Of a stretch of 64,000 bases of DNA, positions 33,404 to 36,581 are shown one piece after another. Source of the DNA: Escherichia phage pinkbiff; the sequence record MN850603.1; one strand, 5' to 3'. Under the pieces are notes generated by a model. That model was not told the origin of the DNA, made no database searches, and was given only the letters and a program-made list of their open reading frames with translations. Every line of letters starts with the position of its first letter. The stretch's first letter is position 1. Position numbers and translations under genes: made by a program.

Positions 33404-35185
33404 TTAAAGCTGCTTGTCAATATTATTTCGAATATCCCCAAGAGTTGTGTAACCGAACTGCTCAGAGTCACTAAAGACTAAACGTAAGGCACAAGCTGGG
33501 TGGTCAAGTGCATCTGCAAAACTCTGGAATCCATAGCCATCTACAGCTTTCAGCTTATCACCATCCCACATGGGTGCTACACCACCAAAAGCAGATTTCT
33601 TAACACCACTATCTGTTTTAGGGTCTTTTGCAAGCATAATCTCTTTACCACCAATGCTTGCAAGAGTTGCTTTGACAGCAAATGCAAAGGTGTCACGAGT
33701 CATGTACTGGTAAGTGTAAGAACCTACACCAAACACTACGTTAGAGCTTGCAAAACCCATTTCATACAGACGCTTCAGGATTTCGTTTGCACGTTCCAGC
33801 GTGATAGAGTCACCATAGATAAGTCCGATATGCTCATCCAGTACCTTAAACCCTTTAGAGTTAATAGTTCCCCCAAAGATGTTGTACAGTGTCTTAATAG
33901 CTCCATCAATCTCAGCTACAGGACGTGTTACAACGTTTGCAGAACCAACCATATAAGTGTTTTTCAACAGCACTGTATCAGCAACTTCAAAGTCTTCTCT
34001 GTCAACAACCATTTCGTAGCCTTCTGACAGTAGCCATCCAGCAATACCATAATTGATGTTTTCAAGCTTCATGTTCAGAACAGCATTCAACATTGTGTCG
34101 CTGGCTTCAAGCTTGCTTAAGTGTTCGTAATAAGCCTTTTTAGCACATTCTAAGTGGATTGCTTTATAACCTGTGACAATATGTACAGGGTCTCCAGAGT
34201 CAGGACGAATTACCAGTTTGCCATCACGTTCCATAATTTCTTTACGAAGTGCTGGTAAAATTTCTGACACAGTTCTCCAGAAGTTATAAGTGTCTGAAAC
34301 AACACTTGCAATACCAGTTGGGTAAGTTTCTGTTAAGAAACGACGGAAGGTTTGTAACTCACCTTTAAAGCGTCTTTCTTCTTCAATCAACTCATTACCA
34401 CCTTCCCAAGCAATGTTTGCACACATTACAGAATGTTCCGTGGCTGGTACAGAACTGCCAATATCAGAGATTGGGTAAGACTGCCCATAGATTCGTTTAG
34501 CCGTGTATACAGCAGGGAAGCTATCAGTTCCTTTAAAGCTGGTTAAGTGGCCTACAGCATTGAATGCGTCATCAGTAAAGCCTGACATACCACGCATAGC
34601 AAAGTCATGGCACTGATAAGGTAAATGCAAGTCATTGTCACAAGTAAGGTCAGCCCACTTCTTACAGATACGCTTGTAGTGCAATGCAATAGTAGCAATG
34701 GTGCAAGCTTTCCAAATCTCAGCAGAGAAAGCATCCTCCAGATACCCTGCTACCCAATGGAAACCTGAAACAGTGTTCTGGAAGACAATCATTGGGACAC
34801 GCATCGGGACAACTGTGCCTTCTTCTACAGCGTATACTTCAACTGGTAGATAACCTAAGTCGTGAAGTGCTTCCCAATGCTCTCGACCGATAGCATCTTT
34901 ACCCAGAACACCATTCATAACTTCTAAGATTTTGTCAATTGCTTCTTTTTTATCACGTTCAAAGAAAGTGGCGTTCCAGTGGTCTATCAAGTAATCTTTA
35001 ACAAAACGTTGAATACCAAAAGCCACTACACCATCAATTGCTAAGGGGCTGTTAAACCATTTATCACTACGTGGTGTCAGGTTCAACATAAGATATTGCG
35101 TAGCATCTGGATACTGATATATATGTGATGCCTTGTAAGCATCTGCATTAAGACCTGCTGGTACTGCGTAAAGTGACTTACTCAT
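33404..35185 (-). CDS. nicotinamide phosphoribosyltransferase-family enzyme (NAMPT/NadV-like; candidate Namat of a NARP1-type pathway), 593 aa
   Basis: N-terminal N-A-D-A-Y-K-A-S-H-I-Y-Q-Y-P matches the NAMPT T-D-S-Y-K-x-T-H motif; longer than typical NadV. Confidence 0.8.
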   Translation of the reverse strand: MSKSLYAVPAGLNADAYKASHIYQYPDATQYLMLNLTPRSDKWFNSPLAIDGVVAFGIQRFVKDYLIDHWNATFFERDKKEAIDKILEVMNGVLGKDAIGREHWEALHDLGYLPVEVYAVEEGTVVPMRVPMIVFQNTVSGFHWVAGYLEDAFSAEIWKACTIATIALHYKRICKKWADLTCDNDLHLPYQCHDFAMRGMSGFTDDAFNAVGHLTSFKGTDSFPAVYTAKRIYGQSYPISDIGSSVPATEHSVMCANIAWEGGNELIEEERRFKGELQTFRRFLTETYPTGIASVVSDTYNFWRTVSEILPALRKEIMERDGKLVIRPDSGDPVHIVTGYKAIHLECAKKAYYEHLSKLEASDTMLNAVLNMKLENINYGIAGWLLSEGYEMVVDREDFEVADTVLLKNTYMVGSANVVTRPVAEIDGAIKTLYNIFGGTINSKGFKVLDEHIGLIYGDSITLERANEILKRLYEMGFASSNVVFGVGSYTYQYMTRDTFAFAVKATLASIGGKEIMLAKDPKTDSGVKKSAFGGVAPMWDGDKLKAVDGYGFQSFADALDHPACALRLVFSDSEQFGYTTLGDIRNNIDKQL

Positions 35186-35199
35186 ATTTTATCTCTCTC

Positions 35200-35691
35200 T
35201 TAGTTATGTCTTGCAAACTCACCATGAAGTTCTATTCGCTTTTTAATTACAGCTTCTTTTGCTTCTTCTACCGTTTTAAATCTTCCACAAAAGTATTCTT
35301 TATGGTAAAGCATGACTCTTGCTTTGTAAAGACCTGTTTGTTTACAAAAACTTACACCCTTCACACCAGTTTTATTATTCTTGTATATACCCCTATTCCT
35401 CTGATTTTGTGACTTTGTGCTAAGTCTTAAATTCTCCAACTTATTATTAGATTTATCAAGGTCTATGTGGTCTATCTCATATCCACTTGGTATCTCACCT
35501 CCAGACATAATCCATGCAATATTATGTGCATAGTACCTCTTCTTATTTATCTGGACTTGGATATAACCCTTCTTAGACCTTGTGCCAGCAACATTACCAG
35601 CAATAGCGGTATTGCAAAGGGTTACTTTCCAAATTAGTAAACCTGTCTCCGGTTCGTATATTAGGTATTTTTCGAAGTAACCCTTATCCAT
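35200..35691 (-). CDS. HNH homing endonuclease with AP2-type DNA-binding domain (163 aa)
   Basis: E-I-D-H-I-D ... N-N-x-x-x-N-L-R-L motif, C-terminal K-x-G-V-K-G-V ... G-x-F-x-T-x-E-E-A; inserted between the NAMPT-like and Prs-like genes. Confidence 0.8.
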   Translation of the reverse strand: MDKGYFEKYLIYEPETGLLIWKVTLCNTAIAGNVAGTRSKKGYIQVQINKKRYYAHNIAWIMSGGEIPSGYEIDHIDLDKSNNKLENLRLSTKSQNQRNRGIYKNNKTGVKGVSFCKQTGLYKARVMLYHKEYFCGRFKTVEEAKEAVIKKRIELHGEFARHN

Positions 35692-35699
35692 TTTAATAC

Positions 35700-36581
35700 C
35701 TAATCCAAATTTGCTACAGTAACTTGACCATAATGTGTTAAGCCACGGTCTTTAGCTTCGCCTAAAGAGTTTGTAGTGTAAATATGGTCGATACCATTGT
35801 CAAGAAGGTTTTCAACATCTTTAGAGAAGATACCATGTGTTACATAAAGTTCCACACGTTTTGCACCTGCTTCACGAAGATGCTTAGCTGCTTCTATGAA
35901 GGTTCGACCACCATCACAGATATCATCCAGAATCATGACGGTTTTATCTGTCAAATCAACATCATCAAGGATTCGCATACCAGTAATTTCACCAGTCTTA
36001 AGGTTACGCACCTTAGACATTGTGATATATGGTTTATCCACCTCTTTAGCGGTCTCTGCAACCTTCTTAGCAGCACCTGCATCTGGGGCTACTAAGTAAT
36101 CAACCAGTGGGTCATTTGCATAGTGGACTGCAATCTCCTTTTGAGGAATACTCTGGAAGCAGTTAAACAGGTTATCTGGTACATAGCTGTGAGGGTCAAC
36201 TGCACAGACTGCACCAAACCCCATTGCATTAACCTGTTTAGCAAAAACCTTCAAAGCTGCTGCATCACCTTTAAACATGTGACGGTCATATCGTGCATTT
36301 GGTAAGTAGTAAAAGATGACAGTCTTTAAGGCATAATCATGAGGAATCAAATCATCAATTGCTTCTTTAGCAAGTGCCACAGCAAACAATGTGTCCTTGT
36401 CGTAGCCTTTTACAATCATAACCACATTGTTAATGGAGGATGCTGCATAAGCAGTAAAATCAACTAGCTCTTGTGAAAAGTGTCCACCAATCTCACCAGA
36501 AGGGAATTGAATGATGTTAAACTCTTCTTCATGAGTTCCTTTAGTTGGTGAATGAATTGTAACACGGATAGATGTTTTCAT
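35700..36581 (-). CDS. ribose-phosphate pyrophosphokinase-family enzyme (Prs-like; candidate Adps of a NARP1-type pathway), 293 aa
   Basis: PRPP-synthetase motifs: V-M-I-L-D-D-I-C-D-G-G-R-T (PRPP-binding loop) and V-D-P-H-S; ATG at 36581. Confidence 0.8.
   Translation of the reverse strand: MKTSIRVTIHSPTKGTHEEEFNIIQFPSGEIGGHFSQELVDFTAYAASSINNVVMIVKGYDKDTLFAVALAKEAIDDLIPHDYALKTVIFYYLPNARYDRHMFKGDAAALKVFAKQVNAMGFGAVCAVDPHSYVPDNLFNCFQSIPQKEIAVHYANDPLVDYLVAPDAGAAKKVAETAKEVDKPYITMSKVRNLKTGEITGMRILDDVDLTDKTVMILDDICDGGRTFIEAAKHLREAGAKRVELYVTHGIFSKDVENLLDNGIDHIYTTNSLGEAKDRGLTHYGQVTVANLD

Follow-up and report, generated by a model that had tools for sequence, protein, structure and literature searches.

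Described NAD+ reconstitution systems and the layout of the locus

The discovery of the phage anti-defence pathway NARP1 goes back to a deletion of genes 79-80 in the Felixounavirus Bas63 (Escherichia phage JohannRWettstein, MZ501086), which sensitised the phage to SIR2-HerA and abolished formation of ADPR-PP, a metabolite detected in Bas63-infected cells (Osterman et al., “Phages reconstitute NAD+ to counter bacterial immunity,” bioRxiv 10.1101/2024.02.11.579819). Rescue of NAD+ by Bas63 was independent of host pncC and nadR. The biochemistry was carried out with the homologs from the Bacillus phage SPbetaL1 (Adps gp190, Namat gp191), and the Bas63 proteins were not purified. SPbetaL1 Adps was found to convert ADP-ribose and ATP into ADPR-PP and gave no product from ribose-5-phosphate. 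SPbetaL1 Namat preferred ADPR-PP over PRPP in vitro and yielded NAD+ as the direct product, which is also implied for Bas63 in vivo (bioRxiv 10.1101/2024.02.11.579819). Crystal structures of SPbetaL1 Namat are available (9W5W/9W5X; PMC12774641). In the NARP1-AP systems of the Vibrio phages Gary and Ceto, an extra gene lies between adps and namat, giving the order Adps-Adpp-Namat (bioRxiv 10.64898/2026.01.28.702374). NARP2 of Vibrio phage KVP40 (Nampt and Nmnat) and the canonical bacterial NadV and Prs enzymes belong to the same superfamilies as the protein pair described here (type II phosphoribosyltransferase fold and PRPP-synthetase fold) and share with it the purpose of raising NAD+.

The window analysed here is a stretch of 64,000 nucleotides from Escherichia phage pinkbiff (MN850603.1), whose genome belongs to the genus Felixounavirus. 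An earlier note on this DNA had proposed that a NAMPT-like and a Prs-like gene on its minus strand form a candidate NARP1 module. Both ORFs are indeed present and intact, as is a third one encoding an HNH_3+AP2 endonuclease (Table 1), and by their profile matches all three have family assignments far beyond chance. The pair is orthologous to the founding Bas63 system: genus, gene order, flanking genes and both protein lengths are the same, and all clamp and catalytic residues are identical. The two loci differ in the spacer, which in Bas63 is a 45-nt hairpin where the window has a 492-nt HNH gene, and in the 5' parts of both genes. The HNH gene begins 8 nt past the adps stop codon and ends 14 nt ahead of the namat ATG, so that the end of adps and the start of namat lie 514 nt apart with a single gene in between. 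An Adps-clade gene thus lies close to namat, well inside the limit of 10 genes that was set for Adps association (bioRxiv 10.1101/2024.02.11.579819).

These observations make it very probable that with this pair a Felix O1-type phage encodes the NARP1 anti-defence pathway. NARP1 is already known from this group of phages and is not a new system: Felix O1, VpaE1 and VpaE1_ev108, which share the HNH-containing layout with the window, were listed as carrying Adps-associated Namat in the original supplement (bioRxiv 10.1101/2024.02.11.579819), and the window pair is therefore not a new candidate. By homology, the pair would be expected to share the enzymatic activities and the anti-defence phenotype of the described systems. 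In the mechanism established for the family, NAD+ is first split into ADP-ribose and nicotinamide by a host defence that depletes it, such as SIR2-HerA, Thoeris, DSR1/2 or SEFIR. Adps then uses ATP to pyrophosphorylate ADP-ribose to ADPR-PP, and Namat joins ADPR-PP and nicotinamide directly to NAD+, with no need for an NMN intermediate or an NMN adenylyltransferase.

Table 1. Features of the NARP1 locus and of the macro-domain gene in the window.
Feature	Coordinates	Strand	Remarks
Terminator-like hairpin directly 3' of namat	33369..33392	-	10-bp stem and T run; consensus scan
namat, putative nicotinamide ADP-ribose transferase (NAMPT-like), NARP1 second enzyme	33404..35185	-	593 aa
Selectivity-clamp helix motif (SCH) GSYTYQYMTRD	33692..33724	-	Namat residues 488-498; fits published Namat consensus
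Lineage-specific 88-aa Namat insertion, predicted alpha/beta subdomain	33902..34165	-	Residues 341-428; no counterpart in SPbetaL1 Namat
Mapped NAD+ contacts D15 Y17 K42/W43 F195 A196 R198 D221 A248 R327 D329			Namat, alignment to SPbetaL1
Mapped NAD+ contacts, continued: G458 D459 S460 G488 S489 Y490 Y494 T496 R497 D498			Namat, alignment to SPbetaL1
HNH-linked variant tract at the 5' end of namat (first 99 nt)	35087..35185	-	Identity comparison
Putative free-standing HNH_3 + AP2 homing-endonuclease gene in the adps-namat spacer	35200..35691	-	163 aa
adps, putative ADP-ribose pyrophosphokinase (Prs-like), NARP1 first enzyme	35700..36581	-	293 aa from ATG
Macro-domain protein gene	25136..25921	-	261 aa; macro domain ~4-157 and ~100-aa C-terminal extension; Pfam Macro

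Substrate-pocket residues of Namat and Adps

The window Namat matches the Pfam families NAPRTase (E=7e-35) and NAMPT_N as well as the PHROG “nicotinamide phosphoribosyl transferase” (E=2.5e-201), and aligns with Bas63 gp80 over its entire length without gaps (577/593 residues identical, 97%). Among solved structures, the best match in both sequence and fold is SPbetaL1 Namat, at an identity of ~42%. Its sequence score (432 bits) exceeds those of H. ducreyi NadV (355), Xcc Nampt (180) and human NAMPT (144), and a fold search with an AF2 model of the window protein (pLDDT 93.2) ranks the PDB structures in the same order, with a TM score of 0.95 to 9W5X. Twenty NAD+-contact residues were taken from the SPbetaL1 Namat crystal structure. 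At these positions, the window protein is identical to SPbetaL1 in 16 cases, carries conservative replacements in the other four and agrees with Bas63 in all 20. They include the NAMPT-type core, in which F189, R192, D215, R306 and D308 of SPbetaL1 align with F195, R198, D221, R327 and D329 of the window protein. Residue H251, which lies in an ATEHSVM motif and is invariant in 40 homologs, is presumably the catalytic histidine.

The residues that stack on the adenine are of the Namat type as well. The clamp-helix motif is the same as in SPbetaL1 and was found in all of the 40 nearest Namat homologs, whereas the corresponding segments of H. ducreyi NadV (GAQTYQRNTRD) and Xcc Nampt (GGALLQKVDRD), used as negative controls, are without the two stacking aromatics. 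A third stacking residue is supplied by the clamp loop, either as an Arg at position 3 or as a Lys or Tyr followed by the stacking residue, and Bas63 Namat is given as the example of the Lys type (PMC12774641). SPbetaL1 has Arg40 at this site; the window loop, TPRSDKWF, reads K42 and then W43, identical to Bas63 Namat, and appears to provide the third stacking residue in the Lys-type manner. Given the 97% identity to the Bas63 protein, the window Namat would be expected to prefer ADPR-PP over PRPP and to yield NAD+ directly.

The earlier note had also remarked that the NAMPT-like protein is about 100 aa longer than typical NadV, and a similar excess is seen against the 491 aa of SPbetaL1 Namat. 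The excess consists of the 88-aa insertion and of ~14 aa at residues 256-277, and SPbetaL1 Namat lacks both. The larger insertion is common to the window and Bas63 and is restricted to ~253 Ounavirinae records, while Namat homologs in general carry between 12 and 94 aa at this site. It is confidently predicted to be a folded subdomain, with a pLDDT of 94-97 within the full Namat model and of 88 when modelled alone. No structural relatives of the subdomain were found. That the subdomain has a function of its own, for instance regulatory, in the binding of a partner or in escape from a host inhibitor, is a weak possibility, weaker than the dispersed NARP1-AP considered below.

The Prs-like partner matches Pribosyltran (E=8e-12), Pribosyl_synth (E=5e-10) and PHROG 619, “ribose-phosphate pyrophosphokinase” (E=1.7e-96). 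Its ATG start agrees with the Bas63 annotation and is preceded by a GAGAGAGA ribosome-binding-like motif; an upstream TTG at 36596 would extend the protein to 298 aa. Alignment with Bas63 gp79, which is of equal length, is free of gaps (227/293 residues identical, 77%), and the divergence is N-terminal: identity falls to 53% in residues 1-60 and amounts to 70-75% in residues 61-180. On this comparison, the low identity of residues 1-60 marks a second allele group relative to Bas63. The catalytic lysine is conserved, K190 aligning with K162 of SPbetaL1 Adps (equivalent to K197 of B. subtilis Prs), and the motifs DPHS and PDAGAAK are conserved across five Adps sequences. Overall identity to SPbetaL1 Adps is ~36%. 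In phmmer searches, the window protein scored 88.8 bits against SPbetaL1 Adps and 112.8 bits against Ceto Adps, whereas no solved Prs gave more than 65.9 bits, and the near-identical sequence of VpaE1_ev108 is listed in the published Adps table of Osterman et al. Therefore, the Prs-like protein appears to belong to the phage Adps clade and not to the housekeeping Prs enzymes. No definition of Adps substrate determinants was found in the NARP1 literature.

A different reading of the pair is classical salvage, in which a true PRPP synthetase and a true NAMPT (NadV) make NMN out of ribose-5-phosphate, ATP and nicotinamide, and host NadR or PncC/NadD completes NAD+. The Pfam, PHROG and GenBank names all read Prs and NAMPT, H. 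ducreyi NadV, a true NadV, ranks second among the PDB matches, and Namat-family enzymes keep some measurable PRPP-to-NMN activity in vitro. However, the adenine-stacking aromatics of the window Namat are missing from true NadV and Nampt, and its partner resembles validated Adps proteins more than it does any Prs of solved structure. [quoted passage not shown] Classical salvage is accordingly very improbable.

The gene content of the window agrees with a NARP1 pathway. The earlier note had seen no NMN adenylyltransferase or Nudix gene, and this was confirmed by motif and Pfam scans: six-frame motif searches in the window and across the complete Bas63 genome gave no HxGH/ISSTxxR or Nudix-box matches, the 21 unassigned ORFs of at least 140 aa had no Pfam match to cytidylyltransferase or NUDIX families, and the Bas63 annotation lists neither type of gene. 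The search covered the window, and the remaining ~23 kb of the genome corresponds to the structural-gene region of Bas63. In contrast to NARP2 of KVP40, no Nmnat is thus found in the window.

The macro-domain gene outside the operon

The earlier note had pointed to a macro-domain gene in the window. The domain is real, with a Pfam Macro match above the gathering score (E=8.4e-8), but the gene is not part of the operon: it lies ~7.5 kb from namat, with 14 annotated genes in between in Bas63. An operon-type NARP1-AP arrangement was considered for the window and rejected, as the gene between adps and namat encodes a homing endonuclease and not a phosphatase, and the sole macro gene is the distant one.

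A dispersed form of NARP1-AP is a further alternative. The macro protein would be an Adpp-type ADP-ribose-1''-phosphate phosphatase that turns the product of RES-type (aRES) defence into ADP-ribose for use by Adps. It is of the same broad subfamily as Adpp, and its identity of 27-36% to the Adpp proteins published as NARP1-associated lies inside the range that this family shows internally (26-41%). A profile built from 14 of the published proteins gives it 103.7 bits end-to-end, as compared to 11 bits for an outgroup macro domain, and it shares the motifs H-x-C-N-C...MG-x-GIA and GLP-x-IG-x-G with Ceto Adpp, a close relative of the validated Gary enzyme (bioRxiv 10.64898/2026.01.28.702374). 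However, the same profile gives 109.2 bits for a T4-like macro protein whose phage has no NARP1, and the macro subfamily is consequently not specific to NARP1. The gene is distant from namat, the published NARP1-AP table contains no Felixounaviruses (bioRxiv 10.64898/2026.01.28.702374), and the C-terminal extension, an additional region relative to Gary and Ceto, is unexplained: it has no Pfam match, and its conservation is already lost in a second genus of the Ounavirinae. A dispersed NARP1-AP is therefore rather unlikely, though worth bearing in mind, and the macro gene is best described as an unlinked, Adpp-like candidate accessory that is not specifically tied to NARP1. If the dispersed arrangement were real, Felix O1-type phages would also defeat RES-type (aRES) NAD+ phosphorolysis, and genome surveys restricted to operon neighbors would miss it.

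The homing endonuclease between adps and namat

The earlier note had described the pair as split by a homing endonuclease. An HNH-AP2 gene does lie exactly between the two genes, but it is intergenic and therefore separates the pair without splitting either gene. Its product matches Pfam HNH_3 (E=1.6e-19) and PHROG 99 (E=3.5e-69), and its AP2 match is below threshold (20.8 bits, cut-off 33.3). The gene was found in 60 phage records, with one copy each, as compared to ~255 records that carry the locus. It occupies the same slot in the window, Felix O1 and phiSUSP1 (three genomes from two genera) and is absent from this slot in Bas63, JLBYU32 and garuso. Conservation across genera is much stronger for the HNH gene than for the genes on either side of it: nucleotide identity to phiSUSP1 is 91% for the former and 75-76% for the latter. 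The intergenic presence/absence polymorphism marks the gene as a free-standing homing endonuclease, a selfish mobile gene that took the place of the short hairpin spacer without damaging its neighbors.

A tract of namat is linked to the insertion. The first 99 nt of the gene are 96% identical to Felix O1 and 93% identical to phiSUSP1, both of which carry the endonuclease gene, but only 77% identical to Bas63 (a difference of 23%) and 74% identical to JLBYU32, which are without it; beyond this tract, namat is 92-99% identical to Bas63 and JLBYU32. The variant tract is present in 87 records, as compared to 60 with the HNH gene, and some genomes without the endonuclease gene carry it, for example garuso. 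The tract is probably the result of co-conversion or a cleavage-immunity tract. Most likely, the HNH gene would spread by cutting genomes that lack it during co-infection, and the copy that enters them would include the neighboring 5' end of namat.

It might be argued that the insertion has uncoupled or inactivated the operon and that adps and namat are decaying remnants in this lineage. A conserved spacer hairpin, which genomes without the endonuclease gene possess, was removed, no obvious ribosome-binding motif was seen at the start of the endonuclease gene, and polar effects on namat are conceivable. Against this, neither ORF is shortened, every catalytic residue is kept, and namat retains its own GAGAGAGA ribosome-binding-like motif, which the insertion left intact. 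A consensus terminator scan found no convincing terminator between adps and namat. The hairpin directly 3' of namat probably marks the 3' end of the transcription unit, although it is a pattern match only and the scan returned three such sites against a chance expectation of 3.7. Moreover, 60 records, among them Felix O1 and a phage of another genus, show this layout with both ORFs undamaged, and namat is 95% identical to Felix O1 at the nucleotide level but 98% at the amino acid level, which means that the differences are mostly synonymous. Decay of the operon is thus hardly credible, even less so than classical salvage, and a NARP1 pathway with an endonuclease gene in its spacer is the preferred reading.

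A discussion of the HNH insertion site inside the NARP1 operon was not found in the literature on NARP1 and Felix O1 phages. Free-standing HNH homing endonucleases of Felix O1-like phages have been described as likewise small ORFs of the HNH_3 and AP2 type that lie between conserved genes and are present in some but not all close relatives (PMC3728262), and in comparison with these the window gene is nothing unusual. A paralog of the HNH protein, 40% identical, is encoded elsewhere in the window.

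The adps-namat pair and its counterpart in Bas63

Three tightly packed minus-strand ORFs, encoding a Prs-like protein (Adps), an HNH protein and a NAMPT-like protein (Namat), occupy positions 33404 to 36581 of the window, and the Pfam and PHROG assignments of their products are unambiguous (see table). The stop codon of adps is followed after 8 nt by the start of the HNH ORF, whose own stop codon lies 14 nt before the start of namat. The earlier note had described a NAMPT-like and PRPP-synthetase-like pair split by a homing endonuclease; the pair is confirmed by its ORFs and family matches and the HNH ORF does separate the two genes, but neither of them is interrupted. 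A megablast search with 33000-37000 matched 258 phage records, nearly all of them Felix O1-type myoviruses (Felixounavirus and relatives) and the top ones about 96% identical, so the genus is very well sampled and the window is a new isolate, or a new assembly, within it.

Coordinates of the features discussed (positions in the window unless a retrieved sequence is named)
Feature	Position	Strand	Basis
adps (Prs-like), 293 aa	35700-36581	-	ORF; Pribosyltran/Pribosyl_synth (Pfam), PHROG 619 E=1.7e-96
HNH gene, 163 aa	35200-35691	-	ORF; HNH_3 E=1.6e-19, AP2 match sub-threshold
namat (NAMPT-like), 593 aa	33404-35185	-	ORF; NAPRTase/NAMPT_N (Pfam), PHROG 448 E=2.5e-201
namat 5' tract, first 99 nt	35087-35185	-	nucleotide identity between genomes
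adps-namat spacer of HEG-less genomes	L008:23629-23673 (Bas63); L009:3383-3427 (JLBYU32)		conserved GC-rich hairpin
Flanking ORFs	36864-37379; 36593-36871; 33015-33350		no informative family found
macro protein, 261 aa	25136-25921	-	ORF; N-terminal macro domain
nrdD-type gene	40102-42988	-	ORFs of 288 and 399 aa around a 154-aa ORF
HNH_3+AP2 paralog	49275-49781	-	40% identical to the NARP1-operon HNH protein
SegE-like gene	48778-49278	-	GIY-YIG
MazG-like protein, 251 aa	47777-48532	-	PRA-PH domain, E=8e-6

The pair is NARP1 (phage NAD+ reconstitution pathway 1), which is already known in this genus, and genomes of exactly the same layout have been catalogued. NARP1 was discovered in Bas63 (BASEL phage JohannRWettstein, MZ501086), in which deletion of genes 79-80 caused sensitivity to SIR2-HerA and loss of a new metabolite, ADPR-pyrophosphate; NAD+ was rescued independently of PncC and NadR, the NMN-using enzymes of the host, and, as the Bas63 proteins purified poorly, homologs of Bacillus phage SPbetaL1 were used for the biochemistry (bioRxiv 10.1101/2024.02.11.579819). 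Bas63 was confirmed here as a Felixounavirus. Genes 79 (882 nt) and 80 (1782 nt) of Bas63 match the window genes exactly in length and have the same neighbours, and the products align without gaps, Namat with 577 of 593 residues (97%) identical to gp80 and Adps with 227 of 293 (77%) identical to gp79. The supplement of the same study tables Felix O1, VpaE1 and VpaE1_ev108 under “Adps-associated” Namat (bioRxiv 10.1101/2024.02.11.579819). The HNH gene is present at this site in each of the three, and the VpaE1_ev108 Adps is nearly identical to that of the window over the portion shown in the supplement.

In the proposed sequence of reactions, a host NADase effector would split NAD+ into ADP-ribose and nicotinamide, Adps would pyrophosphorylate the ADP-ribose with ATP, and Namat would join the resulting ADPR-PP to nicotinamide to give NAD+. 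These reactions have been established with the SPbetaL1 enzymes and, in vivo, with Bas63; for the window we infer them from orthology and conserved residues. No NMNAT was seen, as in the earlier note: six-frame motif scans of the window and of the complete Bas63 genome revealed no HxGH or ISSTxxR nucleotidyltransferase signature and no Nudix box, Pfam found no cytidylyltransferase or NUDIX domain in 21 unassigned ORFs of at least 140 aa, and no NMNAT is annotated in Bas63. The Bas63 counterpart of the part of the pinkbiff genome beyond the window is the structural-gene block.

The NARP1 reading in the earlier note is thus supported by Bas63 orthology, by the NMNAT searches and by the clamp motif, NAD+-contact residues and catalytic lysine described below. 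All database annotations still mislabel the pair as “PRPP synthetase + NAMPT,” and a recently described anti-defence pathway was correctly named from raw sequence alone, a result whose value lies in calibration. Nothing biologically new is claimed, as NARP1 was found in this very genus; modest leads are an HEG-linked tract, an orphan Namat subdomain and an unlinked Adpp-like macro gene.

Residues and domain structure of Namat and Adps

SPbetaL1 Namat has been solved with nicotinamide and with NAD+ (9W5X and 9W5W, respectively), and a “selectivity clamp” was found to recognize the adenine of ADPR-PP (PMC12774641, 2026). In phmmer comparisons the window Namat scored 432 bits against this protein, 355 bits against H. 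ducreyi NadV (9KE8/9KEO), 180 bits against Xanthomonas Nampt and about 144 bits against mammalian NAMPT. A fold search with an AlphaFold2 model of the window protein (pLDDT 93.2) gave the same ranking for the structures that it lists: SPbetaL1 Namat (E = 1e-52, TM 0.95), H. ducreyi NadV (E = 2e-46, TM 0.94) and mammalian NAMPT (E = 2e-38), with Xanthomonas Nampt outside the best 50 listed. Sixteen of the 20 NAD+-contact residues of 9W5W are identical in the window and the remaining four differ conservatively (R40 to K42, then W43; S190 to A; A362 to S; F392 to Y), while all 20 are identical between the window and Bas63 proteins. The clamp motif reads GSYTYQYMTRD in the window; the corresponding stretches of H. 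ducreyi NadV (GAQTYQRNTRD) and Xcc Nampt (GGALLQKVDRD), used as controls, both lack the two aromatics of the Namat motif. A Namat-type clamp was present in all of the 40 nearest homologs aligned. Namat homologs of 495-497 aa (45-48% identical) with the Namat-type motif GSYTYQYNTRD are also encoded on chromosomes of Klebsiella, Cronobacter, Kosakonia, Erwinia and other Enterobacteriaceae, and may represent bacterial or prophage copies of NARP1, consistent with reported bacterial NARP1.

The unusual length of the NAMPT-like protein, also pointed out in the earlier note, is accounted for by two insertions relative to SPbetaL1 Namat, at residues 256-277 and 341-428. Among Namat homologs these sites vary between 8 and 46 aa and between 12 and 94 aa, respectively, and the 88-aa form of the second insertion is confined to Ounavirinae. 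This form is confidently predicted to fold into a compact alpha/beta subdomain (pLDDT 94-97 in the full model, 88 when modelled alone). Neither a Pfam match nor structural relatives were found for this insertion, and it is unmentioned in the structural paper on Namat (PMC12774641).

In Adps, K190 aligns with the essential lysine K162 of the SPbetaL1 enzyme, and the DPHS and PDAGAAK motifs are kept. The phmmer scores were 88.8 bits against SPbetaL1 Adps and 112.8 bits against Ceto Adps, compared with at most 65.9 bits against any solved Prs. Among Felixounaviruses that are otherwise about 95% identical, Adps exists as two deeply diverged alleles, the window/JLBYU32 type and the Bas63/Felix O1/garuso type, which share 53% identity over residues 1-60 and 95-98% over residues 181-293. 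The idea that the Adps allele goes with the HNH gene was rejected, since JLBYU32 lacks the HNH gene and carries the window-type allele (99% aa identity), and Felix O1 has the HNH gene together with a Bas63-type N-terminus.

The homing-endonuclease gene and the linked namat tract

The 514-nt HNH segment was found as a single copy in each of 60 phage records, including Felix O1, Suspvirus phiSUSP1 and Mooglevirus. As about 255 records have the adps-namat locus, the homing-endonuclease gene (HEG) is present in about a quarter of them. Felix O1 and phiSUSP1 carry it in the same slot. The HNH genes of the window and phiSUSP1 share 91% nucleotide identity and the flanking adps and namat genes only 75-76%, which suggests horizontal spread of the HNH gene. 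In the HEG-less genomes Bas63, JLBYU32 and garuso, a 45-nt spacer takes its place. The HEG-less spacer contains a modest hairpin (GGGGCTT-R-AAAGCCCC, then ATTTT; -11.5 kcal/mol, z = -1.9), which may serve as an attenuator or processing site setting the Adps:Namat ratio. The ribosome-binding motif of namat, GAGAGAGA, lies 3' of this hairpin and is kept in the window.

Several observations argue that the HEG-containing operon is still functional: both ORFs are intact, namat retains its own ribosome-binding motif, and the changes relative to Felix O1 are mostly synonymous. In addition, no convincing terminator was found between adps and namat in a promoter and terminator scan that is descriptive only, its terminator count being at chance level (3 found, 3.7 expected).

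The first 99 nt of namat form a variant tract in all three HEG-containing genomes inspected. Over this tract the window is 96% identical to Felix O1 and 93% to phiSUSP1, which carry the HEG, and only 77% and 74% identical to the HEG-less Bas63 and JLBYU32; beyond nt 99 it is 92-99% identical to the latter two. A strict link between tract and HNH gene was nevertheless rejected, because the tract occurs in 87 records compared with 60 for the HEG; some HEG-less recombinants thus possess it, as in garuso, which combines the tract with a normal spacer. Since the tract is not exclusive to HEG-containing genomes, homing co-conversion or selection for a cleavage-immune target would be a plausible origin rather than an established one. 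The 5' end of namat appears to travel with the HEG, which may therefore be a vehicle for the exchange of NARP1 alleles between genera.

Homing endonucleases also occur elsewhere in the window. An HNH_3+AP2 paralog adjoins the SegE-like gene, and the two constitute a tandem homing-endonuclease pair upstream of an exonuclease gene. The gene for an nrdD-type anaerobic ribonucleotide reductase large subunit is divided, and its layout matches that of Bas63 nrdD, which is annotated as a CDS joined from two pieces and enclosing a homing-endonuclease gene; the interruption is thus probably an intron.

The macro-domain gene and a MazG-like protein

The macro-domain gene listed in the earlier note is real, and Bas63 gp95, annotated as “putative phosphatase,” is its ortholog by position and length. 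Some NARP1 operons contain a Poa1p-like macro phosphatase, Adpp, and such three-gene operons are termed NARP1-AP; Adpp produces ADP-ribose from ADPR-1''-phosphate, which aRES defence generates (bioRxiv 10.64898/2026.01.28.702374). The NARP1-AP layout is found in Vibrio phage Ceto, whose macro protein and the validated Gary enzyme are nearly identical. The window protein belongs to the same broad subfamily as NARP1-associated Adpp and is unlinked to the operon.

It is rather unlikely, though conceivable, that this unlinked protein is coupled to the pair as a dispersed NARP1-AP. Its macro domain shares 27-36% identity with a set of 14 published proteins of the Adpp family and matches their profile end to end with 103.7 bits (outgroup, 11 bits); however, the same profile gives 109.2 bits for a T4-like macro protein whose phage lacks NARP1, and the equally good match of this control undermines the profile as proof of coupling. 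Moreover, the macro gene lies 7.5 kb from namat, Felixounaviruses are absent from the published NARP1-AP table, and the macro protein has a C-terminal extension of about 100 aa that lacks any family match and is not conserved in the ortholog of Erwinia phage M7, which belongs to another Ounavirinae genus. If a dispersed NARP1-AP did exist here, the Adpp-like gene could extend NARP1 against aRES.

A further protein of the window carries a MazG-like PRA-PH (phosphoribosyl-ATP pyrophosphohydrolase) domain and, judged by this match, is a putative nucleotide pyrophosphohydrolase.
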